Below, one piece after another: positions 3,614 through 18,671 of a stretch of DNA of 64,000 bases. The DNA lies in assembly GCA_049115495.1 (NCBI GenBank), contig JAGDZV010000005.1:56901-120900 (forward strand), given 5' to 3'. The notes below the pieces were generated by a model, which saw nothing but the letters and a program-made list of their open reading frames with translations, was not told where the DNA came from and ran no database searches. The translations under genes and the position numbers were made by a program. Source of the DNA: Bacteroidia bacterium. Its GTDB lineage: Bacteria; Bacteroidota; Bacteroidia; CAILMK01; JACPUW01. Each line of letters begins with the position of its first letter. The stretch's first letter is position 1.

Positions 3614-4192
3614 ATGCGTCAGCAAATCATGAGCGATCAGGAACTTGTATCACTTTACTTATCTGGTCAAGAAAAAGCATTAGCCATGTTGGTTAATCGC
3701 CACAAAGACAAAATGTTTACTTCAATATATATGCTTGTAAGAGAGCGAAGCATTGCCGAAGACATTTTGCAAGATGCCTTTGTTAAAATTGTATCTACCC
3801 TAAAAAGTGGAAAATACAATGAAGAAGGTAAGTTTATTCAATGGGCTATGCGTATTGCCCGTAATTTGGTTATTGATCATTTTAGAAAGGCTAAGAAAAT
3901 GCCAACTGTAAATGACAGTGAGGGAAACGATGTGTTCTCGTACATTAACGTACAAGAAGAAAACCAAGAAGAGTTTGTAATTAGAAACGAACGCGAACAA
4001 AAAGTTAGAAGATTGGTAGAAGAGCTACCACCTGAGCAAAGAGAAGTATTGGTATTACGCCACTATGCTGAGCTAAGCTTTAAAGAGATTGCAGACTTAA
4101 CCAATGTGAGTATAAATACTGCTTTAGGTAGAATGAGGTATGCCTTAAACAACCTTAGAAAGCTAATTGAAGAGCATAATATCGCCTTTTAG
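3614..4192 (+). CDS. ECF-type sigma-70 RNA polymerase sigma factor
   Basis: Region 2 (AEDILQDAFVK, WAMRIARNLVIDHFRK) and region 4 (LPPEQREVLVLRHYAELSFKEIA...INTALGRMRYA). Confidence 0.95.
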   Translation: MRQQIMSDQELVSLYLSGQEKALAMLVNRHKDKMFTSIYMLVRERSIAEDILQDAFVKIVSTLKSGKYNEEGKFIQWAMRIARNLVIDHFRKAKKMPTVNDSEGNDVFSYINVQEENQEEFVIRNEREQKVRRLVEELPPEQREVLVLRHYAELSFKEIADLTNVSINTALGRMRYALNNLRKLIEEHNIAF

Positions 4193-4265
4193 TAAAATAT
4201 TTATTGCTGGGTGTAATAAAGTTCACTTGGCAGCGTTTTGGCTCATGTAACTTTAAAAATGGTAC

Positions 4266-4487
4266 ATGGATAGAAACGTTACTCAAGAAGAACTTATAAA
4301 ATTTGTTTACGGAGAATTAAGCTTTGCTGACACGGCAGATTTGTACGACAAAATTGACGATGATGCCCCTAGTTTAAAAACTCTTGAAACCTATGCCGCT
4401 TTAAAGTTTGAATTAGACAGGTTGGTAATGAAACCATCTAATAAAGTTGAAAAGAACATAATAGAATTTTCGGCAAGTTATAAGTAG
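4266..4487 (+). CDS. small hypothetical protein, possible anti-sigma/sigma partner
   Basis: 73 aa ORF directly after the ECF gene and before a terminator. The EELIKFVYGELS start resembles anti-sigma N-terminal helices. Confidence 0.6.
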   Translation: MDRNVTQEELIKFVYGELSFADTADLYDKIDDDAPSLKTLETYAALKFELDRLVMKPSNKVEKNIIEFSASYK

Positions 4488-4524
4488 TCTAAAGCATTAA
4501 AAGGCTTACAAATCCCAATATCTT

Positions 4525-4551
4525 AAAAGGCCCAAATGCGGGCCTTTTTTT
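4525..4551 (+). terminator. intrinsic terminator
   Basis: AAAAGGCCC-aaatgc-GGGCCTTTT plus T-run. Confidence 0.8.
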
Positions 4552-4622
4552 ATTTATAGTGGATTACTTTTTACAATGAGTTTTATGTAACGGTTATCAT
4601 TGGTGCATCAAGCAGTACAGGT

Positions 4623-5330
4623 ATGTCAACATTTAGCGCGTTAGTAATTACTAAAAGTCCTTCTAATTTTCAAGAATTCATCAGCTATGTTCAAGGCGAA
4701 GGTTGGGGGGCCATTTCCGTAAACGGAATAGATGAATTGAATAATACAGACCTTGAAACCTTTTTTAATCCTGTTGTACTCATTGATGTACACGATTTTG
4801 AGAAAGGAGAAATAAGCAAATTGGTAGATAAGGCCAAACAGCAACACATGCCCTTCTTTTTCGTACTTCAAAATGCTGATTTGAAAACATTTGAAGATTA
4901 CAAACTGTATTTGCCTACAGGTTATTTCACATCGCCAATGAGCACCGTTTCAAGTGTTATTAACATTGAACAATCGCTTCATAATGCATCATCAGCAGTT
5001 GCTAAAAGTCAAAAGCTTGAAGAGTTATTTGTAAAGAATGGTAAAGACTATTTGCGCATAGGTTCTGATGAGATTCTTTGGATTCAGGCCAGTGGAAATT
5101 ACATTGAGATTTTTACAAGTAATGATAGGAGCTATTTGTTAAGAGTTGGACTCAAAGAAATTGAATTGAGACTTCCTGATGATCAGTTTATACGAGTGCA
5201 TAAATCATATATTGTAAACAAGAAACATATTCTAAAATTCAACAGCAACTCTTTGCGTACCCAACAAGGAGAAGTACCTATAGCACGAAGCTATTTCAAT
5301 GCTGTGCTTACTTCATTTACCATAATATAA
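4623..5330 (+). CDS. LytTR-family transcriptional regulator with degenerate receiver domain
   Basis: C-terminal LytTR (EILWIQASGNY, FIRVHKSYIVN, VPIARSY). The N-terminal REC-like fold has SP where KP is usual. Confidence 0.88.
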   Translation: MSTFSALVITKSPSNFQEFISYVQGEGWGAISVNGIDELNNTDLETFFNPVVLIDVHDFEKGEISKLVDKAKQQHMPFFFVLQNADLKTFEDYKLYLPTGYFTSPMSTVSSVINIEQSLHNASSAVAKSQKLEELFVKNGKDYLRIGSDEILWIQASGNYIEIFTSNDRSYLLRVGLKEIELRLPDDQFIRVHKSYIVNKKHILKFNSNSLRTQQGEVPIARSYFNAVLTSFTII

Positions 5331-5762
5331 AGAGCAACTTGCTTAATTAACACATCACATAATAAGCTCTAATCTTGTTGAGCGCTTAAATCATTTTATA
5401 CTTGTTTCGAAATACTTTTCTTAGAAATGAGATAGTTTTTTGGGATTTACGCTGGTTTTGGATTCACAAAGTAAGCTCATCTACAAATTCTTATTATCAC
5501 CCTTTTTTTCATTTTGTTATCGGCTTAGTTCCAATGAATAAGGCAGGTTAGTCGGTAAATTCTCTGATTTTAGGTCTAATCCATCACCTGATACGATATA
5601 GATGGTAGGCTTTGATGTTTTTTTCTTGATGGTTTGTGTTTTTCCACATGGTGGAATAAAAGTGGTCTTTAAAGGGTCAAATCAATAAAAGTTAACTGTG
5701 GATAATTCGTTTTCAATAGAATTTAGGGGGTTAAAGTAAAAATAATCAATTCATGTAGTCTT

Positions 5763-5777
5763 TGGTATAGTGGTTGT
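5763..5777 (+). promoter_or_regulatory. putative sigma-54 -24/-12 promoter of the giant adhesin gene
   Basis: TGGTATAGTGGTTGT has the GG and TTG at sigma-54 spacing, followed by AGTAAGC at the predicted +1 (5788-5794), as at 17340-17370. Confidence 0.55.
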
Positions 5778-5935
5778 CCAATATATAAGTAAGCTAACAA
5801 GGCAGTACTTTGAAAGTCAACACAACACAAAAGGAAATAGAATCTTCGTCGATGAAGGAGTTTATGCTCCAAAACGGCGAAAACAGTAACTATTTAAAGG
5901 TTTCGAACAACACATTATCACAAAACACATTGGAA

Positions 5936-8900
5936 ATGAGAGTGAATTTTACTTATCTGTGGTCCATCGCTAAGACCACCTTTTCGCGTCAATATTGGTT
6001 GATGCTGCTAATTTTGGGAATAACTTCTTTCCCAAATTTGGAAGCGTTTGCCAATTCAGAAAGCCCGGAGATTATTTCATCTGCGCTTTTCACTCCTCAG
6101 ATGCCACCAGATACTGATCCGCCAATTGTACAACTCTATACTTTAGTTGAGGTACCAGTAGATACTTCTAACGTTATCAACTTTGCAAATCCAAATGATT
6201 TGATACAAAGTATTGTAGAAGCAAGCTCTTATGAGATTTTGTACGACACTATTGCAATTGATTGCGATGATGTTGGTCAAACATTTACCATGGGCGTTAA
6301 AGTAAGAGATGCTTTTGGAAATGAATGGAATGGATCAACCACAGTAAAGCCGGTTGATATTACCCCTCCGGTAATAGAATTTAAGAACAAAGTTGTAGTG
6401 CAGCTTGACGCCAATGGAGAAGCAACGCTTACAAAGAGTAATATAGACTTACAGTCTTATGATCTTTGTGTTGGTAACAATAGAAGTGGTTCAGGATTGG
6501 TTTATAACATCAGCCGTACCAGTTTTGATTGTACCGACCTACCAACAGCTCAAGTAACTGTAACGGTTGTAGATGGTTCAGGCAATAGCGAGTCTGATTC
6601 ATATACCAAATCAGTTGTGAGCAATCAATTGGTTTATGTAAAGAATGATGTTATTGATGAATACTCAGTAACTGTAAACATAGATGACTGCTTACCACCA
6701 GTTGCTCTTTGTGATGATATTGAAGTAACTGTTGGTTCAAATGGTTTCGCAAGTATTTCACCTGCCGATGTTGATCTAGGAAGTTACGACAACTGTACAG
6801 GTGTTTGGTACTCTACTTTAACAGATAGTGTTTTTACTTGTGCAGACGCAGGTACAAAGAAAGTTAGCTTAAGTGTTTATGACTTTGCAGGCAACATGGC
6901 CTGTTGTCCTGTAGAAGTTACTGTCAACTTCCAGGATGAAAAACCTACCGTAATATGTCAAGACATAACAGTTCAGCTAGACGCTAACGGCGAAGCTGAA
7001 ATAACAGCTGCTGATATTGACGGCGGCTCTTTTGATGATTGTGGTATTGAAACCATGACCATTGATAAGACATCTTTTACTTGTTCTGATATAGGAGACA
7101 ACTTCGTAACGCTTACGGTTTGTGACAATCAAGGTCAGTGCAGTGAATGTACAGCTACGGTTAAGGTAATTAGCACAAACGGAGTTGATCTTGATATTGA
7201 TGTAAACAATATTTCTTGTTTTGGTGCCAATGATGGTTCAATTAGCATTAGCGCTACTGGTTTAAGCCTAACATGTGATGGTTTTAGAACACAAACACAA
7301 GGTGGGTGGGGCACATCATGTAATGGTAATAACCCTGGATGTTATAGAGATGCGAATTTCGTTACGGCATTTCCAAGTGGTCTAACAATAGGTTGCACAG
7401 GCGGAAATTCTGCAACATTTACAACTTCTTCGGCTATTCAAAGCTTTTTACCTGCTGGTGGTTCACCGGGTGCTTTAAGCTCAAATGCAATTAATGCAAC
7501 ATCAACATCTGCTGGCGTTTTGGCTGGTCAATTAGTAGCATTAAGTTTAAGTGTAGGTTTTGATGCCGCAGATCCTTCTTTTGGATCTTCACCAGCGAGT
7601 CTTAGTAATCTAAAGATTATTGCAAACGGTTCGCCATTTGATGGAATGACTGTTGGGGAATTCTTAGTTATAGCAAATGAGGTAATTGGAGGTTGTAATA
7701 CGAGTTACTCGTTCTCCGATGTTAACGATATTGCTTCAATGATTAATGAAAACTTTGTAGATGGAACCACCAACAAAGGTGACTTAGAGATTCCATCAAG
7801 TTTTGTTTGGTCAAATGGAGCGACTTCAAATGAAATAACTGATCTAGGTCCTGGAAACTACTCTGTGACCGTTACAAATTGCGGAATTTCTGATTGTCCG
7901 ATTGTTAAAACATTTACAATTTCAGAACCCACAGAGCTTACTGCTACAATTGAGAAAACTGATGCAACATGTGATGGCGAAGAATTAGTTGCTTGTAGTG
8001 TTTCAAGATATAATAGTTCAAGCCACGCCATATGGTTGCCAAACCTTGCAAATGGAGTTTCAAATAAGTTTTGGTTCGAAAATGGAGCAGGTAGCTTTGT
8101 ACAGTACCCTGATGGAACAGCTCACTTAACAGGTGAAATTTATAACGCAAACGATGCTGGAAAAAGATTTGATGTTAGTGTTTGGTTCTATAACAAACGA
8201 GATTGGGCTCAATGGAGCGCTCTTGGAAGAGGTGTAAAGGGAAATTCAGGTACGATAAATGGAAACAATGTTGATTGGACATTTTATGAAATGGATCCAA
8301 ATAAGCAGAATACATTAACGGGCAAATCGGATTATCTAGGGGATGTTTTATACCTTACTCATAAACCAGCCAATCTCAATTATGCGTTTCAAATAGGTGT
8401 TGCAGCAAATGATAAAGATGCAGATTATGGAATGAGTGGTTGGTTTAATTATACTGGTAGCTGGAGTGGTCATGGAGATTTTAATTTTGACGCATCTTGC
8501 ACAACTTTTGAAGCTTGTGATGGTATAGCTACCGTTTCGGTTTCAGGAGGCACAGCACCTTATTCATATTCTTGGTCAAATGGAGCAAATAGTGAGACTG
8601 CAGAATTTCTTTGCGCAGGAACTTATTCTGTAACAATAACCGACGCTAACGGGTGTACAACCACGCAAACAGACATAGTTATTAACGAGCCAAGCGGTTG
8701 TAACGTAACCGATGGTGGTTCAATTGATGGTGGTCAAGCCAATTGTGGTTCATTTGACCCTGTTCAATTTACAAGTATTACTTCTCCAAGTGGTGGCTTA
8801 GGTGCTTTAGAATATAAGTGGATGAGCAGTACGGTTAGCGCTACCTATACCGCTGGAGATAACAATTGGATTGAGATATCAAACTCCAATTCTGAAGACC

Positions 8901-11900
8901 TTGATCTAGGTCTTATTTCACAAACCACGTATGTTGTAAGATTATCACGAAGAGCAGGAAACACTGATTATACAGGAGTGTCTAATGTTATTACTTTAAC
9001 TGTTTACCCTATACCAAGTGTTTCAATTACAAAAAACAATGACATTACATGTTTTGGAGCTGGCGATGGATCAGCAACAGTAAATGTATCATCAGGTACT
9101 GCACCATATTCATACTCGTGGTCATCAGGTTCAACTACAGCTGATGCTGATAATCTTACTGCAGGCACATATACAGTAACTGTAACAGATGCCAACGGTT
9201 GTTCGGCAACTGAGCAGGTGATAATTACTGAGCCCACAGAACTAACCGCAACAGTTACTTCTACCAATCCAACATGTAACGGAGGAAATGATGGAGCAGG
9301 AACTTGTGCAGCTTCAGGCGGAACAGCGCCATACGCTTATGCATGGAGCAATGGCAATAACACAGCAAACGCTCAAAATTTAACTGCCGGAACTTACAAT
9401 GTTGCTGTAACCGATGCCAATGGTTGTTCAGTTACTAAAACTGTTATAATCACTGAGCCATCTGATATAAATGTTTCTGTTGTAAGTAGCGATGTAACTT
9501 GTGGTGGTACAGTAGTAAAAACTTGTACCGTATCAAGATATAATAATAATAGCCATGCGATTTGGCTACCAAACTTGCCAAACGGAGTAAGTAACAAGTT
9601 TTGGTTTACCAACAACGCTGGTACTTTAACCCAATACCCTGACGGAACAGCGCACTTAACAGGAGAAATCTACAATGCTAGCGATGCTGGAAAAAGATTT
9701 GAAGTAAGTGTTTGGTTCTACAACAAAAGAGATTGGGCACAATGGAATGCTTTAGGAAGAAGTATTAAAGGAAATACCAATACTATAAACGGAAACAATG
9801 TTGATTGGACTTTCTATGAGATGGATCCAAACAAACAAAATACTTTAACAGGTTTATCAGACTACCAAGGCGATGTACTAAACCTAACCCATAAACCATC
9901 TAATTTAAATTTTGCATTCCAAATTGGAGTTGGCGCAAATGATAAAGATGGCGATTTCGGTATGAGTGGTTGGTTCAACTATACAGGAAGCTGGAGCGGC
10001 CATGGTGATTTCAACTTTGATGCAAGCTGTTCAGACGATAGCCAATGTGATGGTAGTGCTGTAGCAACAGCTTCAGGAGGTACATCACCTTACACCTATT
10101 CATGGTCAAACGGCGGCAATACAAATACAATTGACGAGCTATGTGAAGGTACTTATACTGTAACTGTAACTGATGCCAACGGGTGCATAAAAACAGAAAC
10201 AGTAACCATTTCTGCACCAGCAGCTCTTACAGCATCAATCAATGCAAACGACCCTGATTGTTCAGCCGGAAACAATGGATCAGCTTCAGTAAGCGTAACA
10301 GGAGGTACATCACCATATACCTACTCATGGTCAAATGGTGCAGCTGCAACATCTATTAGTGGCTTAAATGCCGGAATGTATTCAGTTACAGTAACCGATG
10401 CAAAGGGTTGTCAAACAATAGTTTCAACTACCCTTACATTGCCTTCATGTTGCAACGTAACAAATGGCGGTACCATAAGCGGCAACCAATCTAACTGCGG
10501 ACCATTTGATCCTAATCCAATTACTAGCTTAACATTACCAAGCGGTGGTCTTGGTGGCGTAGAATATGTTTGGTTACAAAGCAACACCTTAGTTCCAAAT
10601 ACAGTAGGTAATCCATATTGGACAGAAGTTCCAAATTCAAATAGTGAAACTTTTGATCCAGGATTAATAACTGAAACTACATACTACATCCGTTGCTCAA
10701 GAAGCATTGGTTGTACTTTTTATGCTGGAGAATCAAATGTTATAACCATTACAGTAAACGCTGCCCCTAGCATATCAATTACAAAAAACAATGACATTAC
10801 ATGTTTTGGAGCTGGTGATGGATCAGCAACAGTAAATGTATCATCAGGTACTGCACCATATTCATACTCATGGTCATCAGGTTCAAATTCAGCAGACGCT
10901 GATAACTTAAATGCAGGTACATATACAGTAACTGTAACAGATGCCAACGGTTGTTCAGCAACTGAGCAGGTAACCATTACCGAGCCTAGCCAATTAGTTG
11001 CTACCACTTCTAGCGTTGATGGTTCATGTTTAAATGCAAATGATGGATCAGCGACAGTAAGTGTAAGCGGTGGTACTTCACCATATAGCTATGATTGGTC
11101 AAATGGCGCAACAACGGCAACAATTAATAATGTAGTGGCCGGTACTTACTCGGTATTGGTAACTGATGCTAATGGCTGTGCTACAACAAAATCGGTAGTT
11201 GTAGATTTTGACGATAATGTAGCTCCGGTAGCTAATTGTAAGAATATTACAGTTCAATTAAGCTCAAATGGAACGGCAACAATTGTAGCTGCAGATGTGA
11301 ACAATGGCTCTACTGATAATTGTGGCATCGGATCAATGACCGTATCGCCAGCAAGCTTTGATTGCTCAAACGTTGGAAGCAATACAGTAACGCTTACCGT
11401 TACTGATGTTAATGGTAATACAGCAACATGTCAATCAACAGTAACAGTTGAAGACAATGTAGCACCAAGCGTATTATGTAAAACGGCTGTTGTTTATTTA
11501 GATGCAAGTGGTAAGGCTCAAGTAACCGTAAGTGATGTAGATAACGGATCTTCAGATGCTTGTGGAATTGATGCCATGTCGGTAAGCCCAACTCAATTTG
11601 ACTGTTCTCATGTAGGAACACCTCAAAGTGTAGTATTATCAGTAACTGATATTTACGGAAATACATCAACTTGTACTACTACTGTAAGTGTTGAAGATAA
11701 TTTGGATCCAGTAGCCAATTGTAAGAATGTAACAGTTGTACTTGATGCCAATGGCAACGCAAGCATAGCTGCTTCTGATATAAATGATGGCTCAACTGAC
11801 AACTGCGGAATAGCAAATTTGAGCTTATCTCAAAAAGATTTTGATTGCTCTCACATAGGAAATAATAGCATTACACTCACGGTTGAAGATGTTAACGGAA

Positions 11901-14900
11901 ACATTTCAACTTGTGCATCTACTATAACTGTAGTTGACGATGAAGACCCTACGATTTCAGGTGTTCCGGCTACAGTTACTGTTACGGCAAACGCCAACGA
12001 CTGTACACCATCAGTTTCATGGACTCCACCTACAGCGAATGACAACTGTACAGTAAGCCTTACATCTAATTACAACCAAGGTGATGATTTCCCAATTGGT
12101 TCAACAACGGTAACTTATACTGCCGAAGATGGTTCTGGAAATACGGCAACTGCTTCATTTAATGTTGTAGTAAACGCATCTCCAATAGTGGTTAATGTAA
12201 ACACTAGCGATGTAAGCTGTAATGGCGGTGCTGATGGTTCTGCAACAACAACTGTTAGTGGTGGTTGTGAGCCATACTCTTACTTGTGGTCTACAAATAG
12301 TACATCAACAAGTATCAGCGGATTATCGGCAGGAAATTATTCAATAACCATAACAGATGCCAATGGTAATTCTAAATCTGTAAACTTTACAGTGGGCGAA
12401 GCAAGTAAATTGGTAGCTACTGTTAGTGGTTCTGACCCTACATGTGCAACGGGTACTGATGGCTCTGCGACAGTTAACGTTAGTGGTGGTACATCTCCTT
12501 ACTCATATACATGGAGCAATAATGCCACTACATCAAGCATTAGCGGCTTAAGTTCAGGTACCTATAGTGTAACAATTACAGATGCTAATGGCTGTACAAC
12601 AACAGGTTCAGTTTCAATTGCACGTCCATTATGTTGTAACGTAACAAGTGGTGGTACCATTGGTAACGGTCAAGAAAATTGCGGTCCTTTTAATCCTGCA
12701 GCAATAACAAATACAATTAGCCCATCAGGGGGTCTTGGAGCACTTGAGTACTTATGGTTGCAAAGCAATGTAAATGTTCCAAATACAGTTGGAAACAGCG
12801 CATGGTCTCCAATTCCAAATTCAAATGCGGCTACTTATGATCCAGGTCAAATTACTCAAACTACATACTACATAAGATGTGCAAGAAGAGTAGGTTGTAC
12901 AGATTGGATAGGTGAATCTAATATTATAGCAATGATTGTTAACCCAGTACCAACAGTAAGCCTACAGGCACCGGCTACAGTATGTACAGGTGGAAACGAT
13001 GGAACCATTGACCTTACGGTTGGTAGCGGTACAGCTCCTTTTACTTATGCTTGGACCAAGAATGGTTTGCCATTTGACAATACTGAAGATTTAACCAATC
13101 TTGATGGTGGAATTTACGAAGTAACTGTTACCGATGCAAAAGGATGTTCTGCAACGGGTAGTGTTACAATAGGTATACAAGATGCTTTTGATCTTGAGGC
13201 AGTAATTGATGATGTAAACTGTTTTGGTGGAAACACAGGAGAAATTGATCTATCAATAAATGGCTCAAGTACCAACACATCAACAATGACTATTGATGAA
13301 GATATTTGGGTTGAAGACTTTGAAGATCTTGCCCTTTGTGTATCAAATGATAATGGTTCTACGGCTTGGTCTGTTTCAGGCTATGCCACTGGTTATGCGC
13401 AAGTAAAATCAATTAGCGGAAGCAAGGCATTTGATATGAACAATACAGATAATACAATTACTTGGAAGTCTGAATCAATTGATATTTCAAATCACACAGA
13501 TGTTGAGATTTCAGCAAAACTGTACGATTATGGTAATTTAGAGTCAGGTGATTTTATAAAAGTATACTACCAGATAGATGGTGGAAATGAAGTAGCTCTA
13601 ACAAACGGTATACATCATGATGACTTTGGATGTGAAACGGCGACAGCTACTGGTTTGTCAGGTAATTCAATTAAGCTAATTATATACACCAAAAACTCTT
13701 CTTCAAGCGAATATCACTGGTTTGATGATGTAACAGTTTCGGGTTCAAGAACGGTTACATATACCACATCTGACGTTTGGGTTGAGACATTTGAAGATAA
13801 CAGCCTATATGCAACATCTGATAATGGAACAACCGCTTGGCATAGCTGGAAGAACTCTTCAAGTAACTATGCTAAAGTAAAATCAAACAATGCTGGTAAG
13901 GTATTCCAAATGTCAGACGGTGATGCCAAATGGTATTCTGAGAAAATTGACATTTCAAACATGGCCAATGTAAGTGTAGATATTGAATTAGGTTCAGTGC
14001 AAGGAAACGAGCTTGATGCAAGCGGATCTTATGTAGACTGGATTAGAGTTTACTACCGCTTAGACAACGGAAGTTGGGAGTTTTTTGATACCAATTATGA
14101 TACAAAAGGAGAATTAAGCAGTAATAATATTCATGCCACTGTAGCCGGATTAAACGGAGATGACCTTGAACTTAAAGTTTGGGCGCATTCTACAACAACA
14201 AGTGAATACTATTTTGTAGACAATGTAACTGTAACGGCAAACACACCGGGTAACAGTTCAAACTACACCATACTTTGGTCAAACAATGAAACTACTGAAG
14301 ATATTACAGACCTTACAGCCGGAAACTATACGGTAACAGTAACTGATGTAAACGGATGTTCTGTAACAAAACAGTTTGTGGTTACTCAACCAAACGAGTT
14401 AGAGTTAAATGCTAATGTTGCTAAGGTATCTTGCCCAAGTACACCGGCTCAGCCAATATGCGAAGACGGAATCAAGGCTTTAGAAATACTTTTCACAGGT
14501 GCTAACGGAACAGACGTTGTTGTGAAAGATGCTAACGGAATTACCCTAGGGTCGTTTGTTAATGTAGATAATGGCGACATCTTATCTGTAACATCTTCAA
14601 GTGCCATTCAAGGACCAATAGAACTTTGTACCCCTTCTTGTGCAGGCAAACAAAATGGCCAAAATATTGCTCAGGGATGCCAGCCTAGTGTAAATGCGAC
14701 TTTCTCATGTAACAATGAGAGCGTTTATGTTTGTTCATCTAAGGACTTGTCAAATGTTGTATTGAAATTCTCTGACGGCACAGAATATAAATTCGACAAC
14801 TTAAGTGTTGGCAAATGCCATACCTTCTCAGGAAATGGTTCAAATGCTGGCAAAGAGATAGTTGGTGTTTGGATTAAGTCGGGTTGTAATTCTAGTAATG

Positions 14901-17200
14901 ATGGTCCTGGCTACGGAGAGTATGTTAGAAATGCTAATAGCGCAACTTGTCAATCGATTTCTCTTGATTGTACCAATGGTATTATAGGTGCTTCTTCATC
15001 TGATTTTGAAATAGTTTCTTTTGTAGATGTGAACGGAGTAAGCTCTGTTAATCAAACTCCAAATTCAATATGTGAGCTAGGTTTATCGGGTTTGTCGCAT
15101 GGAGAATTAATAACTGGTCAATTTGTATCAGAAGGAACTACAGTGTCAGCTGTGGCGAATGGTGGACACTTGAACGAGCTTATAGTATTTAATACCAATG
15201 AAACAAATACATCTGACCCTGATCTAGAAGTTAATATTGGAAACATATTAATATTTCCAGAAAATAACACGGATAACAATAACGATGGAATCTATGATGA
15301 TCCAGATGATCAAGCACAAGGTGGAACCATTACATTCAATTACTCAAGTCCAAGAGCTATTACATCATTAAAATTTGTTGATAGTGAAAATAGCAATGGA
15401 TGGATTAAGTGTTATGACGCTTCTAATAACATAATTATTAATAAGTCAATAGCAAATGCTGGAGATGCCTCTGTACAGGATATTACGCTGAATGCTTTCG
15501 GCGTATCCAAGATGGTTGTTTATTTCACAACGTCGGGCGGTATAGGAGATATAAAATATGATTGTGCTCAAGATGTTTGTGATGGAGCAATTGACCTAAG
15601 TGTTATAGGAGGAACAGCACCTTATTCATACACATGGAATAATGGCGAAACAACTCAGGATATTTCAGAATTATGTGAAGGAACTTACACTGTAACTGTA
15701 GCAGATGCCAATGGTTGTAGCAAAGAAATTCAGGTAGTAGTTGAAAGAGAAGCATGCTGTAATGTAACAGATGCTGGTAAAATTACCGGCAACCAAAACA
15801 GCTGTGGTGCATACACTCCAAGTCAAATTGAAGACTTAACGTCTGCAACTGGAGGAGCCGGAAACCTTGAATATGAATGGTATTACAGTACAAGTAGCAA
15901 TACATATAACTCAACTGATAATTCATGGAACAAATTCGACGGCGAAACTTCAGCTACACTTCAACCAGGGTTAGTTTCTGAAACTACTTATATAGTGAGA
16001 TTAGCCAAAAGAGAAAACTGTAGCGACTGGTTAGCATCTAATGTTATAAGCCTAATTGTTAAAGATGCGCCTACTGTAAGTATTAATGAAATAGTTGCAT
16101 CTACTTGCCAAGGTGGGTTACCTACAATAGAAGGAACAATAGGTGGCTCTTACACATCTTATCACTGGTTGTTCAATGGAAATAGAACTACTTTTTCTGG
16201 AACAACAATTAGCGATGCAGCACTAGGAGTTTATACTTTGGTGGTAACCAATGCAAGCGGGTGTGAAGTTACCGCTGATTATACATCAGCCGCTCCAGTT
16301 GGTCCAAGTGTAAGTGCAGATATTACAAATTCACTTGCTCAAACAAGTTCTAACTGCGATTGCGAAGGAAGAATGAGAAACTTCACAGTAGTTTACCAAG
16401 GCAATGGAAAAGATGTTACTGTTAGATTATATAACAAAAAGAAAAAGAGTATCAAAAAGATTTTCAACAAGGTTAATAATGGAGATGTATTAAGCTTTGA
16501 TGGCTATGATAAGTCGAATAGACATGAAGCATATGTGCATTTAAGAGTTGGAAGTGGCAGTTTTACTGAAATTCACACTTCTTGTTCAATTGATATTTTG
16601 GGTAACACTTATGGCGATTTCTATGTGCAGTCTTATGTAGATGGTGACGGAAACTCTTGTTCAGTGAACTCAGTATGTACTGGTGATATAGATGTAACAG
16701 TTAACACTGGTATTGCGCCGTACACCTACTCATGGTCAAATGGGGAAACCACTCAAGATTTAACGGATGTTTGCCCTGGAAATTACACTTTAACAATTAC
16801 GGATGCCAACGGATGTTATAGTCAAGAAACCTTTACTGTAGGTACAACATCAGCGAGTTCTACTAGAAGTACAGTTGCCAATAAAGAAACAGCTACTAGT
16901 GGAGAAATTAACAATATGAATGATCAATTCATCAATGCTAGTGAGTTATCAATATCACCAAACCCAACTAACGGTTTTGCCAAGGTTAACTTCATAATTA
17001 ATGAGTCTGCTAATGCCAATGTGTTTATTTCCGATATGGCAGGAAAGCAATTATTGAATGTATACGACGGGTTTACCGAAGGTGGTGTAAGTCAGCAAGT
17101 AAGTGTTGATTTGACCCAACTAAGAAGTGGTATTTACATGGTAGTAATTAGAACTTCAAGTGGTGAGTCTATGGTTCAACGAGTAGTGGTAAGTCGTTAA
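5936..17200 (+). CDS. giant mosaic T9SS-secreted surface protein/adhesin (SprB repeats, HYR-like repeats, several inserted domains, type A CTD)
   Basis: The ORF is open from 5810 (TTG), but ATG 5936 gives a signal peptide (MRVNF...LLILGITSFPNLEAFA). Many GGTAPYSYSWSNG...GTYTVTVTDANGC repeats, PVA.CKNITV.LD..G repeats, and C-terminal SPNPT...SGIYMVVIRT...QRVVVSR. Confidence 0.9.
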   Translation: MRVNFTYLWSIAKTTFSRQYWLMLLILGITSFPNLEAFANSESPEIISSALFTPQMPPDTDPPIVQLYTLVEVPVDTSNVINFANPNDLIQSIVEASSYEILYDTIAIDCDDVGQTFTMGVKVRDAFGNEWNGSTTVKPVDITPPVIEFKNKVVVQLDANGEATLTKSNIDLQSYDLCVGNNRSGSGLVYNISRTSFDCTDLPTAQVTVTVVDGSGNSESDSYTKSVVSNQLVYVKNDVIDEYSVTVNIDDCLPPVALCDDIEVTVGSNGFASISPADVDLGSYDNCTGVWYSTLTDSVFTCADAGTKKVSLSVYDFAGNMACCPVEVTVNFQDEKPTVICQDITVQLDANGEAEITAADIDGGSFDDCGIETMTIDKTSFTCSDIGDNFVTLTVCDNQGQCSECTATVKVISTNGVDLDIDVNNISCFGANDGSISISATGLSLTCDGFRTQTQGGWGTSCNGNNPGCYRDANFVTAFPSGLTIGCTGGNSATFTTSSAIQSFLPAGGSPGALSSNAINATSTSAGVLAGQLVALSLSVGFDAADPSFGSSPASLSNLKIIANGSPFDGMTVGEFLVIANEVIGGCNTSYSFSDVNDIASMINENFVDGTTNKGDLEIPSSFVWSNGATSNEITDLGPGNYSVTVTNCGISDCPIVKTFTISEPTELTATIEKTDATCDGEELVACSVSRYNSSSHAIWLPNLANGVSNKFWFENGAGSFVQYPDGTAHLTGEIYNANDAGKRFDVSVWFYNKRDWAQWSALGRGVKGNSGTINGNNVDWTFYEMDPNKQNTLTGKSDYLGDVLYLTHKPANLNYAFQIGVAANDKDADYGMSGWFNYTGSWSGHGDFNFDASCTTFEACDGIATVSVSGGTAPYSYSWSNGANSETAEFLCAGTYSVTITDANGCTTTQTDIVINEPSGCNVTDGGSIDGGQANCGSFDPVQFTSITSPSGGLGALEYKWMSSTVSATYTAGDNNWIEISNSNSEDLDLGLISQTTYVVRLSRRAGNTDYTGVSNVITLTVYPIPSVSITKNNDITCFGAGDGSATVNVSSGTAPYSYSWSSGSTTADADNLTAGTYTVTVTDANGCSATEQVIITEPTELTATVTSTNPTCNGGNDGAGTCAASGGTAPYAYAWSNGNNTANAQNLTAGTYNVAVTDANGCSVTKTVIITEPSDINVSVVSSDVTCGGTVVKTCTVSRYNNNSHAIWLPNLPNGVSNKFWFTNNAGTLTQYPDGTAHLTGEIYNASDAGKRFEVSVWFYNKRDWAQWNALGRSIKGNTNTINGNNVDWTFYEMDPNKQNTLTGLSDYQGDVLNLTHKPSNLNFAFQIGVGANDKDGDFGMSGWFNYTGSWSGHGDFNFDASCSDDSQCDGSAVATASGGTSPYTYSWSNGGNTNTIDELCEGTYTVTVTDANGCIKTETVTISAPAALTASINANDPDCSAGNNGSASVSVTGGTSPYTYSWSNGAAATSISGLNAGMYSVTVTDAKGCQTIVSTTLTLPSCCNVTNGGTISGNQSNCGPFDPNPITSLTLPSGGLGGVEYVWLQSNTLVPNTVGNPYWTEVPNSNSETFDPGLITETTYYIRCSRSIGCTFYAGESNVITITVNAAPSISITKNNDITCFGAGDGSATVNVSSGTAPYSYSWSSGSNSADADNLNAGTYTVTVTDANGCSATEQVTITEPSQLVATTSSVDGSCLNANDGSATVSVSGGTSPYSYDWSNGATTATINNVVAGTYSVLVTDANGCATTKSVVVDFDDNVAPVANCKNITVQLSSNGTATIVAADVNNGSTDNCGIGSMTVSPASFDCSNVGSNTVTLTVTDVNGNTATCQSTVTVEDNVAPSVLCKTAVVYLDASGKAQVTVSDVDNGSSDACGIDAMSVSPTQFDCSHVGTPQSVVLSVTDIYGNTSTCTTTVSVEDNLDPVANCKNVTVVLDANGNASIAASDINDGSTDNCGIANLSLSQKDFDCSHIGNNSITLTVEDVNGNISTCASTITVVDDEDPTISGVPATVTVTANANDCTPSVSWTPPTANDNCTVSLTSNYNQGDDFPIGSTTVTYTAEDGSGNTATASFNVVVNASPIVVNVNTSDVSCNGGADGSATTTVSGGCEPYSYLWSTNSTSTSISGLSAGNYSITITDANGNSKSVNFTVGEASKLVATVSGSDPTCATGTDGSATVNVSGGTSPYSYTWSNNATTSSISGLSSGTYSVTITDANGCTTTGSVSIARPLCCNVTSGGTIGNGQENCGPFNPAAITNTISPSGGLGALEYLWLQSNVNVPNTVGNSAWSPIPNSNAATYDPGQITQTTYYIRCARRVGCTDWIGESNIIAMIVNPVPTVSLQAPATVCTGGNDGTIDLTVGSGTAPFTYAWTKNGLPFDNTEDLTNLDGGIYEVTVTDAKGCSATGSVTIGIQDAFDLEAVIDDVNCFGGNTGEIDLSINGSSTNTSTMTIDEDIWVEDFEDLALCVSNDNGSTAWSVSGYATGYAQVKSISGSKAFDMNNTDNTITWKSESIDISNHTDVEISAKLYDYGNLESGDFIKVYYQIDGGNEVALTNGIHHDDFGCETATATGLSGNSIKLIIYTKNSSSSEYHWFDDVTVSGSRTVTYTTSDVWVETFEDNSLYATSDNGTTAWHSWKNSSSNYAKVKSNNAGKVFQMSDGDAKWYSEKIDISNMANVSVDIELGSVQGNELDASGSYVDWIRVYYRLDNGSWEFFDTNYDTKGELSSNNIHATVAGLNGDDLELKVWAHSTTTSEYYFVDNVTVTANTPGNSSNYTILWSNNETTEDITDLTAGNYTVTVTDVNGCSVTKQFVVTQPNELELNANVAKVSCPSTPAQPICEDGIKALEILFTGANGTDVVVKDANGITLGSFVNVDNGDILSVTSSSAIQGPIELCTPSCAGKQNGQNIAQGCQPSVNATFSCNNESVYVCSSKDLSNVVLKFSDGTEYKFDNLSVGKCHTFSGNGSNAGKEIVGVWIKSGCNSSNDGPGYGEYVRNANSATCQSISLDCTNGIIGASSSDFEIVSFVDVNGVSSVNQTPNSICELGLSGLSHGELITGQFVSEGTTVSAVANGGHLNELIVFNTNETNTSDPDLEVNIGNILIFPENNTDNNNDGIYDDPDDQAQGGTITFNYSSPRAITSLKFVDSENSNGWIKCYDASNNIIINKSIANAGDASVQDITLNAFGVSKMVVYFTTSGGIGDIKYDCAQDVCDGAIDLSVIGGTAPYSYTWNNGETTQDISELCEGTYTVTVADANGCSKEIQVVVEREACCNVTDAGKITGNQNSCGAYTPSQIEDLTSATGGAGNLEYEWYYSTSSNTYNSTDNSWNKFDGETSATLQPGLVSETTYIVRLAKRENCSDWLASNVISLIVKDAPTVSINEIVASTCQGGLPTIEGTIGGSYTSYHWLFNGNRTTFSGTTISDAALGVYTLVVTNASGCEVTADYTSAAPVGPSVSADITNSLAQTSSNCDCEGRMRNFTVVYQGNGKDVTVRLYNKKKKSIKKIFNKVNNGDVLSFDGYDKSNRHEAYVHLRVGSGSFTEIHTSCSIDILGNTYGDFYVQSYVDGDGNSCSVNSVCTGDIDVTVNTGIAPYTYSWSNGETTQDLTDVCPGNYTLTITDANGCYSQETFTVGTTSASSTRSTVANKETATSGEINNMNDQFINASELSISPNPTNGFAKVNFIINESANANVFISDMAGKQLLNVYDGFTEGGVSQQVSVDLTQLRSGIYMVVIRTSSGESMVQRVVVSR
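9023..10987 (+). repeat. near-identical intragenic direct repeat (9023-9235 and 10775-10987)
   Basis: One SprB module occurs twice 1752 bp apart, with only 2 mismatches over the first ~110 nt. Confidence 0.85.
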
Positions 17201-17222
17201 CACACATATATCATTCTTTGTA

Positions 17223-17261
17223 AGAAAAGCTTTGCCCTTGTGGTAAAGCTTTTCTTTTTTT
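17223..17261 (+). terminator. intrinsic terminator of the giant adhesin gene
   Basis: AGAAAAGCTTTGCC-cttgt-GGTAAAGCTTTTCT plus T-run. Confidence 0.85.
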
Positions 17262-17339
17262 GGGAGACCCTAATTCATATTTTATTTACACAAGTATAAA
17301 ACAGTAAAATCAGCACCTTTTACTTATTGTTTTTGCTTT

Positions 17340-17354
17340 TGGCACGGTACTTGT
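17340..17354 (+). promoter_or_regulatory. putative sigma-54 -24/-12 promoter
   Basis: TGGCACGGTACTTGT is a near-perfect match to TGGCACG-N4-TTGC. Confidence 0.7.
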
Positions 17355-17363
17355 AAAAACTAT

Positions 17364-17455
17364 AGTAAGCAATCAGAATTAAAATTTAGCCCAATAATCG
17401 AAGCCTAGTTAGCCTGAAGAGCCCACGGTTCCCAAAACCTGGGCTTTTCTTTTTT
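17364..17455 (+). ncRNA. candidate ~90 nt sigma-54-dependent small RNA
   Basis: Lies between a sigma-54-like promoter and a plus-strand hairpin + U-tract (AGCCCAcGGTT-cccaa-AACCTGGGCT-TTTCTTTTTT). No ORF; four AGCC motifs. Confidence 0.55.
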
Positions 17456-17483
17456 AAAAGAATTATTTTAGGTGCTGCTTATC

Positions 17484-18671
17484 TTATCTCATTAGAATAC
17501 TACTATCGCCATAGCTTAAAAATCTATAGTCATTATTTATCGCATGCGAGTAAATGGTTTTCCATTCATTACCAACTATAGCTGCAATTAGCGCCAATAG
17601 CGTGCTTTTGGGTTGATGAAAGTTAGTAATTAAACCATCAATCATTTTAAAACTATATCCTGGCATTGTAAATAATGCGGTAGTTGCCTTAAGTTCCTTT
17701 TGCCCTTCTTGCTCTAATCTGTCTATTAAAATACTAATGGCTTCTTGTTTGCTAATTTTTGCTTCAAGTTCATAAGAATCAGAGGTAAATAGTTGGTTTG
17801 CTAACCGGCCTTGTTTTTTAGATTTTAAGGCAAGCCAGTAAAGGCTCTCAAGTGTTCTTAGGCTAGTGGTGCCAACAGCTATTATCTTATCTTTTTTCAA
17901 AAGCCATTTAAGAAAACTTATACTTACAACAATATGTTCGTGGTGCATATTGTGTTTGTCAAGCGTTTCGGCTTTTACAGGTTGAAAAGTTCCAGCACTT
18001 ACATGAAGCGTTACATAGTTTTGTTCAACCCCAGCATTAGACAGCTTTTGCAATTGTTCGTCGGTAAAATGGAGTCCTGCGGTTGGCGCAGCAACAGCAC
18101 CATTATTTTGAGCGTAAACGGTTTGGTATCTTTTCTTATCGTCTTCAGTTGATTTTCTGTTAAGGTAAGGAGGCAATGGCACCTCGCCAGCTGCATTAAG
18201 TATATGAGCAAATGCCTCACCGCTATCCCAATCAAATTGAACCAAAACACTATCGTTAAGTCTTTTGTAAATCTTCGCCTTTAAGATTCCTTTAGTCGTG
18301 GCATATTCAAGTGTATCATGGTCTTTAAACCTTTTAAGGTTACCCACCATGCATTTCCAAATGGCACTTTTGGTTTCTTGCATGGCCACGTTAATTTCAG
18401 TTTCAAAAGGTTCAAGACAAAAAACTTCAATTTGAGAGCCTGTTGCTTTAGAAAATTTTAACCTGGCGGCTACCACTTTGGTATTGTTCATAACCAAACA
18501 AGCATTGGGCGGCAAAAACGATTCAAGGTTACTAAAAATAGCATCCCTTATTTGGCCATTTTCATAAACCAGCAACTTTGAGCGATTGCGTTGTTTTAAT
18601 GGATATTTAGCAATTCTTTCATCAGGAAGATTGTAATCAAAATCATTAATAGAAAGTGCAGGAATACTCAT
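17484..18671 (-). CDS. queA: S-adenosylmethionine:tRNA ribosyltransferase-isomerase
   Basis: FDYNLPDERIAKYP, PLPPYL.R, YQTVYA, AVAAPTAGLHFT, TNFHQPKSTL, YRFLSYGD. Confidence 0.95.
   Translation of the reverse strand: MSIPALSINDFDYNLPDERIAKYPLKQRNRSKLLVYENGQIRDAIFSNLESFLPPNACLVMNNTKVVAARLKFSKATGSQIEVFCLEPFETEINVAMQETKSAIWKCMVGNLKRFKDHDTLEYATTKGILKAKIYKRLNDSVLVQFDWDSGEAFAHILNAAGEVPLPPYLNRKSTEDDKKRYQTVYAQNNGAVAAPTAGLHFTDEQLQKLSNAGVEQNYVTLHVSAGTFQPVKAETLDKHNMHHEHIVVSISFLKWLLKKDKIIAVGTTSLRTLESLYWLALKSKKQGRLANQLFTSDSYELEAKISKQEAISILIDRLEQEGQKELKATTALFTMPGYSFKMIDGLITNFHQPKSTLLALIAAIVGNEWKTIYSHAINNDYRFLSYGDSSILMR

Follow-up and report, generated by a model that had tools for sequence, protein, structure and literature searches.

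Introduction

The sigma-54-dependent small RNAs (sRNAs) of the Proteobacteria, such as Qrr1-5, GlmY, CrcZ and NrsZ, are well studied. They are short, non-coding orphan genes with a -24/-12 promoter, an intrinsic terminator and a conserved, exposed working part. A sigma-54 promoter carries GG at -25/-24 and a (T)TGC-type element at -13/-12, with exactly 10 bases between the GG and the GC. Some RNAs, namely the protein sponges CsrB/Rsm and CrcZ, work through a short motif that is repeated along the molecule.

For the Bacteroidota, the only trace of a sigma-54 sRNA that we found in the literature is a table entry: Rfp36, a putative regulatory RNA of Flavobacterium psychrophilum that is placed among the sigma-54 (SM4) promoters in Table 2A of PMC9723704. 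The same article assigns Rfp36 to co-expression cluster B419, together with the gliding operon remFG-sprCDBF, and reports that the sigma-54 promoter of this operon was tested by mutagenesis (PMC9723704). Two sRNAs of Bacteroides thetaiotaomicron, GibS and FopS, are described with a single-stranded conserved stretch directly before a Rho-independent terminator, in an article according to which the Bacteroides phylum uses RRM-1 proteins instead of Hfq (PMC11697453).

Here we analyse a locus at positions 17340-17455 of a 64-kb window (the whole stretch of DNA under study, 64,000 nucleotides) from the genome of an uncultured member of the Bacteroidia (4.7 Mb in 57 contigs, 97.6% complete, 36.7% G+C). 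An earlier, sequence-only reading had proposed that the locus encodes an unannotated RpoN-dependent sRNA, acting either as a protein sponge or by base pairing. Its layout is that of the proteobacterial RNAs: a short non-coding orphan gene with a -24/-12-type promoter, an intrinsic terminator and a conserved part that is predicted to be exposed. It differs from them in belonging to another phylum and in lacking any match to their sequences or structures in Rfam. Moreover, the proteobacterial partners Hfq and CsrA were not found in the genome, and no activator site is recognised at the sRNA promoter.

Results

The unit lies downstream of a giant adhesin gene, and the order of its parts was found to be as the sequence-only reading had described it. 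The adhesin has its own intrinsic terminator at 17222-17261 on the plus strand (a hairpin at 17222-17256 and a T-run), which was recovered by a simple terminator scan. It precedes a sigma-54-type promoter box, TGGCACGGTACTTGT, at 17340-17354 (plus strand), with GG at 17341-17342 and TTG at 17351-17353. The predicted 5' segment of the RNA covers 17366-17386 (plus strand), varies in sequence and length among loci, and would start at about 17366, judging from the position of the box. Next comes the invariant core (17387-17424, plus strand), which is identical in all six loci that we aligned (alignment A3), is predicted to be single-stranded and holds the four AGCC motifs that had been claimed (17388-17391, 17402-17405, 17411-17414 and 17420-17423). 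The last 9 nt of the core are also the 5' arm of the intrinsic terminator, in which a stem at 17416-17449 is followed by a U-tract at 17450-17455 on the plus strand. In the window copy this hairpin folds with -19.8 kcal/mol ahead of TTTTTT; it is bulged, was omitted by the simple terminator scan and is visible by folding only. The minimum-energy fold of the window copy leaves the core unpaired, and the other five copies give no consistent pairing for it, so that only the terminator folds. Outside the unit, the next gene is the convergent queA (17484-18671, minus strand; PF02547, E 7.5e-103).

The stretch of about 90 nt after the box is non-coding, as had been claimed. Our map of open reading frames (ORFs) has no ORF of at least 30 aa within 17201-17483, and the sole ORF of at least 20 aa there is a 20-aa minus-strand frame opening at TTG (17310-17372), beyond the conserved core. 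Read directly from the sequence, all three plus-strand frames contain stop codons. We rejected a small-protein reading because no ORF of at least 20 aa covers the core. A bidirectional terminator serving queA was likewise rejected: the minus strand has no T-run after the hairpin, and the downstream gene, always convergent, varies among the loci (a DUF481 gene in four of six, queA in the window, and a gene without a Pfam family in one). The orientation of the hairpin is thus left unexplained by queA, in line with the sequence-only reading. The locus has a promoter box and a terminator of its own, is non-coding and is not attached to a downstream gene.

The same unit was found in six of six homologous loci: the window, three genomes of the same genus and two seawater metagenome contigs. 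In a BLAST search of 41 relatives, the three same-genus genomes aligned to window positions 17378-17465 only, with 91-94% identity, and no convincing sRNA match appeared outside these three. The two metagenome copies came from an exact-pattern scan, which returned invariant copies only; when applied to the genome collection, it gave the same three genus genomes again. Across A3, 38 nt (17387-17424) and the 10-nt 3' arm of the terminator (17441-17450) are invariant in all six loci, while the 5' segment, the inner stem and the loop are variable. In these six sequences the spacers separating the AGCC motifs vary no more than the motifs do. The neighbouring genes have drifted much further, with an identity of 62-76% among the DUF481 proteins and 28-62% over the last 300 aa of the adhesins. 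The terminator hairpin with its U-run folds in every locus. Of the ten pairs in its outer stem, nine are the same in all loci and one changes (AU in four, UG in one, unpaired in one), so that the stem yields almost no covariation support. The six loci are kin, and multiplying per-locus probabilities would overstate the significance of their agreement. Nonetheless, the joint conservation of box and terminator in relatives, on which the sequence-only reading had staked its case, was found in all six loci, and the conserved locus very likely encodes a real regulatory RNA.

The distribution of the RNA is narrow. A covariance model built from A3 was run against the order (all 25 genomes) and against 151 genomes sampled from the class; it scored 100-112 bits in the four genus genomes only, in each of which the gene is single-copy, and neither set yielded a homologue beyond the genus. 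The weaker matches that we inspected outside the genus were discarded as 3' ends of genes with their terminators, or as an unrelated second element that is described below. Rfam has no family at gathering score anywhere in the 64-kb window, which by this search is free of tRNAs, rRNAs and known riboswitches; around the sRNA site, at E values up to 10, it gave chance-level matches to unrelated families only. There was also no match between the sRNA and the Bacteroides sRNA families in Rfam, GibS and FopS included. In the genomes searched, the sRNA family is restricted to one uncultured Bacteroidia genus.

The second element is located outside the window, at about 256430-256516 (minus strand) of contig C16 (L040), and was also seen at L028, L029 and L020, making four genomes that include a sister genus. 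Its sequence reads ACTTCATA(G)CCCAAAAACCTTTAAATTACTTAATGCC(TAG)CTGAA, followed by a terminator. The upstream region holds the palindrome TCTTAAYG-N4-TTAAKCA and, some 10 nt ahead of the RNA, a conserved CGTT; only one of the four genomes also shows a sigma-54-like box. The element has no Rfam family, and it has the strings CCCAA and GCCTAG in common with the sRNA.

Upstream of the sRNA core, all six loci carry TTGG-N3-G-N4-TTG with exact internal spacing. The box reads TTGGCACGGTACTTGT in the window, and TTGGCACGGACGTTGC, TTGGCCTGATACTTGA, TTGGTACGATAGTTGA, TTGGCACGGCGCTTGT and TTGGCACGAGGATTGT in loci L002, L003, L004, L010 and L011, respectively. Its mean pairwise identity is 0.71, against 0.33 in the 40 nt before and 0.32 in the 14 nt after it. 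Depending on the locus, the core lies 29-39 nt beyond the TTG of the box, and such rigid spacing within the box, combined with a varying distance, fits a promoter positioned relative to a start site, with a 5' segment that varies after it. In shuffled 80-nt upstream stretches, TGG-N8-TTG occurred in 0.6-2.6% per locus. The claim of a near-perfect sigma-54 box holds for the window copy in that it is the only 15/15 match to the textbook consensus TGGCACG-N4-TTG in about 0.83 Mb of non-coding DNA. The shorter pattern TGGCAC-N5-TTG has 28 copies in the 4.7-Mb genome, however, close to the roughly 20 expected by our own arithmetic at 36.7% GC; as it is not enriched genome-wide, the case for a promoter rests on position and conservation, not on the match alone. 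Both the extent of non-coding DNA and the genome-wide statistics depend on our own, crude ORF maps.

The canonical C at -12 is found in one of the six boxes (TTGT in three, TTGA in two, TTGC in one). Its absence from the other five speaks for an origin of the conserved RNA other than the sigma-54-type box, either from a housekeeping-type promoter bordering the core on its 5' side or by processing of adhesin read-through. Indeed, TAAAATTTAG resembles the Bacteroidota -7 element TAnnTTTG, and A(A/T)TTTAG abuts the core in five of six loci. Yet the -7-like element is one base off TAnnTTTG and is lost in L010 (GTATAG), and no -33 TTG stands at a constant distance from it, the spacing being 18-29 nt by our own count. 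As for read-through, the sRNA is always located just 3' of the adhesin gene; however, the adhesin stop codon is followed in all six loci by a strong terminator (a hairpin and T-run recognised by eye), a non-conserved spacer of 75-100 nt and only then the box. An origin without sigma-54 would also leave the exact conservation of TTGG-N3-G-N4-TTG unexplained, and we consider it improbable.

Sigma-54-dependent transcription of the sRNA seems likely to us on the strength of the box and of comparable boxes in the same genome. Sigma-54-type boxes precede four chaperone genes: dnaK (TTGGCATATAGCTTGC, C50:583100), htpG (CTGGCACAGGCCTTGA, C50:534450), grpE (TTGGCAGCAAGTTTGA, C4:228586) and groES (TTGGCATAGAATTCGT, C16:243347). 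They stand at about -46 to -63 from the start codons, with TTGC, TTGA or TCGT as their -12 elements. The dnaK box is kept in a genus relative and in the sister genus (G003 and G004), and in this set of three genomes it stands at -59 to -63. All four chaperone genes appear under the sigma-54 motif SM4 of F. psychrophilum in PMC9723704. These boxes vary after the TTG, which makes a variable base at -12 normal for the lineage; judged by them, TTG(C/A/T) is the normal form of the -12 element in the window's genome. Further upstream of the groES, dnaK, htpG and grpE boxes we observed repeated TGACA/TGTCA motifs, in a layout that for dnaK is kept in G003 and G004. They probably mark the binding site of the activator in a sigma-54 heat-shock regulon that resembles the F. 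psychrophilum one.

The sigma factor itself is encoded: rpoN, without which the sequence-only reading would have fallen, was found in the window's genome (PF04552, 188 bits) and in all three same-genus genomes. Five full-length Sigma54_activat proteins (PF00158, 222-248 bits) provide enhancer-binding proteins. Upstream of the six sRNA boxes and four adhesin boxes, a search for a shared activator k-mer returned none beyond T-runs; some sigma-54 activators need no upstream site. A scan of the genome for other units of a sigma-54 box and a terminator gave 46 raw candidates, none of which resembled the sRNA unit. At C16:496965 (minus strand), a box (TGGTCTAACTTTTGC) stands 149 nt ahead of a good terminator (-15.4 kcal/mol), no frame between the two exceeds 27 codons, and this may be another short sigma-54-type unit.

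The gene upstream of the sRNA (5936-17200, plus strand) encodes a giant SprB-repeat adhesin with a type IX secretion sorting domain, of 3754 aa when counted from a conserved ATG. Its Pfam domains are the SprB repeat (13 stretches, E 1.4e-101), HYR and Por_Secre_tail. The longest ORF has 3796 codons and opens at a TTG at 5810; the real start is probably the conserved ATG at 5936 and not this TTG. The same kind of adhesin gene stands upstream, on the same strand, in all six loci. It has a conserved sigma-54-type box of its own, TTGGTATAGTGGTTG, at 5762-5776 (plus strand), for which the usual -24/-12 geometry predicts a start at about 5789. The pattern TTGGTAYA-N4-TTG was found upstream of the adhesin orthologues in four of the four genomes with a readable 5' end. 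About 17 nt past the box, where the adhesin mRNA is predicted to begin, lies an invariant block, GCTAANAAGGC, at 5793-5803 (plus strand; alignment A4). The composite of box and block occurs once in each of the four genus genomes and in none of the 21 other genomes of the order, a co-distribution that reflects a single clade and is not independent evidence. Taken together, the sRNA gene is coupled physically, and probably also in its regulation, to the SprB-type adhesin gene upstream. Directly upstream of the adhesin, at window positions 3614-5330, we also noted genes for an ECF sigma factor (192 aa) and a LytTR DNA-binding protein (235 aa), which are possible local regulators.

The adhesin block and the sRNA core are partly complementary. 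As DNA, this makes GCTAACAAGGC (5793-5803) and GCCTAGTTAGC (17404-17414) inverted copies with one mismatch, both of them conserved, and the invariant stretch might act as a DNA site instead, bound by a protein or used in recombination, for example to invert an 11.6-kb adhesin segment. An imperfect repeat of 11 bp is short for such a role, and it has two mismatches in one genome. No recombinase gene is adjacent (the neighbours are queA, mutL and the genes for the LytTR protein and the ECF sigma factor), and the promoter box, the terminator and the 38-nt invariance would all go unexplained. We regard a DNA site as highly improbable.

As RNA, the adhesin block could pair with GCCUAGUUAGC of the sRNA, in the window through 6 bp, an A.A mismatch and 4 bp, and the adhesin leader offers additional, lineage-specific pairs to UAAUCGA of the sRNA. 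The predicted leader duplexes have energies of -16.2 to -18.6 kcal/mol; they beat their shuffles (fraction 0-0.036), yet 5-12% of real upstream 40-mers from the same genome do as well. An RNAduplex search of the 210-nt 5' regions of 3641 crude ORFs was dominated by long-loop artefacts, ranked the adhesin 1461 and was thus uninformative. Genome-wide, there are 139 11-mers complementary to the sRNA against 85.5 expected, and over the k-mers the counts are 1.6-2x the uniform expectation. The 10 longest complementary sites that we inspected (all seven 13-14-mers and three 12-mers) are mostly intragenic, with none at a convincing 5' UTR. Pairing between the sRNA and the adhesin leader is, on these predictions, doubtful. 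Besides, an invariance of 38 nt exceeds what a single seed needs, and this counts against simple pairing.

The same excess could be accounted for if the sRNA, still driven by sigma-54, acted as a sponge or decoy that titrates a protein binding AGCC-type motifs in single-stranded RNA. The core has four AGCC motifs within 36 nt in A/U-rich surroundings, where our own arithmetic expects about 0.1, and all of its 38 nt are invariant. The window's genome encodes a single RRM_1 protein, which would be a candidate for such a partner; the RRM-1 protein RbpB of B. thetaiotaomicron binds single-stranded parts of sRNAs according to PMC11697453. In known sponges, however, the motifs are kept while the spacers drift, whereas here the spacers are equally invariant, and the fourth AGCC is part of the terminator stem. 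CsrB/Rsm and CrcZ titrate CsrA and Hfq, and a search of this 97.6%-complete genome found neither of these two proteins. To our knowledge, no protein with a preference for AGCC has been described. We consider a sponge unlikely.

Discussion

The reading that we favour, with somewhat better than even confidence in it as a whole, is that the locus is an independent sigma-54-driven sRNA gene, coupled to the adhesin gene, whose product would act by base pairing in preference to other modes. Its parts differ in strength. That a separately transcribed sRNA exists is a conclusion we would defend with good confidence, given the conserved unit in six loci, the presence of rpoN and the lack of coding potential, and to this extent the unannotated RpoN-dependent sRNA of the sequence-only reading is supported. 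That it acts by base pairing we hold to be an even call. In molecular terms, sigma-54 RNA polymerase and one of the enhancer-binding proteins would start transcription near 17366, some 13 nt past the TTG as counted from its G. The transcript would end at the hairpin and U-tract (17416-17455) with a length of about 82-95 nt, and the invariant, unstructured, AGCC-rich stretch at 17387-17424 would be its working surface. Base pairing with mRNAs would be the mode of action, and a first, weakly supported candidate for a target would be the adhesin mRNA at its conserved 5' end.

Base pairing is favoured by the comparison with GibS and FopS, since a non-coding RNA in which an unpaired core leads into a terminator has the layout of these sRNAs. 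There are differences: as described in PMC11697453, GibS and FopS are multicopy, have another type of promoter and carry their conserved stretch at the 5' end, whereas the gene studied here is single-copy and has its conserved stretch after a variable 5' segment. The likeness to CsrB/RsmZ and CrcZ, by comparison, is confined to a short motif repeated in an otherwise A/U-rich RNA. Their motifs are GGA or the A-rich Hfq/Crc motif instead of AGCC, and the RNA described here displays no motif in hairpin loops and has invariant spacers. A sponge of the CsrB/RsmZ type is further contradicted by an AGCC motif in unpaired sequence and by the missing CsrA, and one of the CrcZ type by the missing Hfq. 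The repeated motif that the sequence-only reading had pointed out still stands, but its comparison with CsrB and CrcZ does not carry over literally.

Another of the closest known kinds is Rfp36. Like the sRNA described here, it comes from the Bacteroidota, has a sigma-54-type promoter and is tied to SprB-type adhesin genes, a comparison made through a table entry in PMC9723704 and not through sequence. Food for speculation is whether the adhesin and the sRNA form one sigma-54 module that answers to the same signal. The RNA would then pair through GCCUAGUUAGC and UAAUCGA with the very start of the adhesin mRNA and set the amount or timing of the adhesin; alternatively, the AGCC array could be a platform for a new RNA-binding regulator of the Bacteroidota. 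We offer this as a guess, and a rather unlikely one.

By its sequence features, the sRNA is a new, narrow-range family of sigma-54-type sRNAs. Its reach is limited, as the sRNA was found in one uncultured genus only. Within this range, the locus is a case backed by comparison, in which promoter, RNA and terminator are kept as a unit beside a gliding-type adhesin that has the same type of promoter. It also provides a defined RNA sequence for searches for targets and protein partners in a phylum that lacks Hfq and CsrA. Finally, the locus points to a possible post-transcriptional arm in the way sigma-54 controls the Bacteroidota cell surface.
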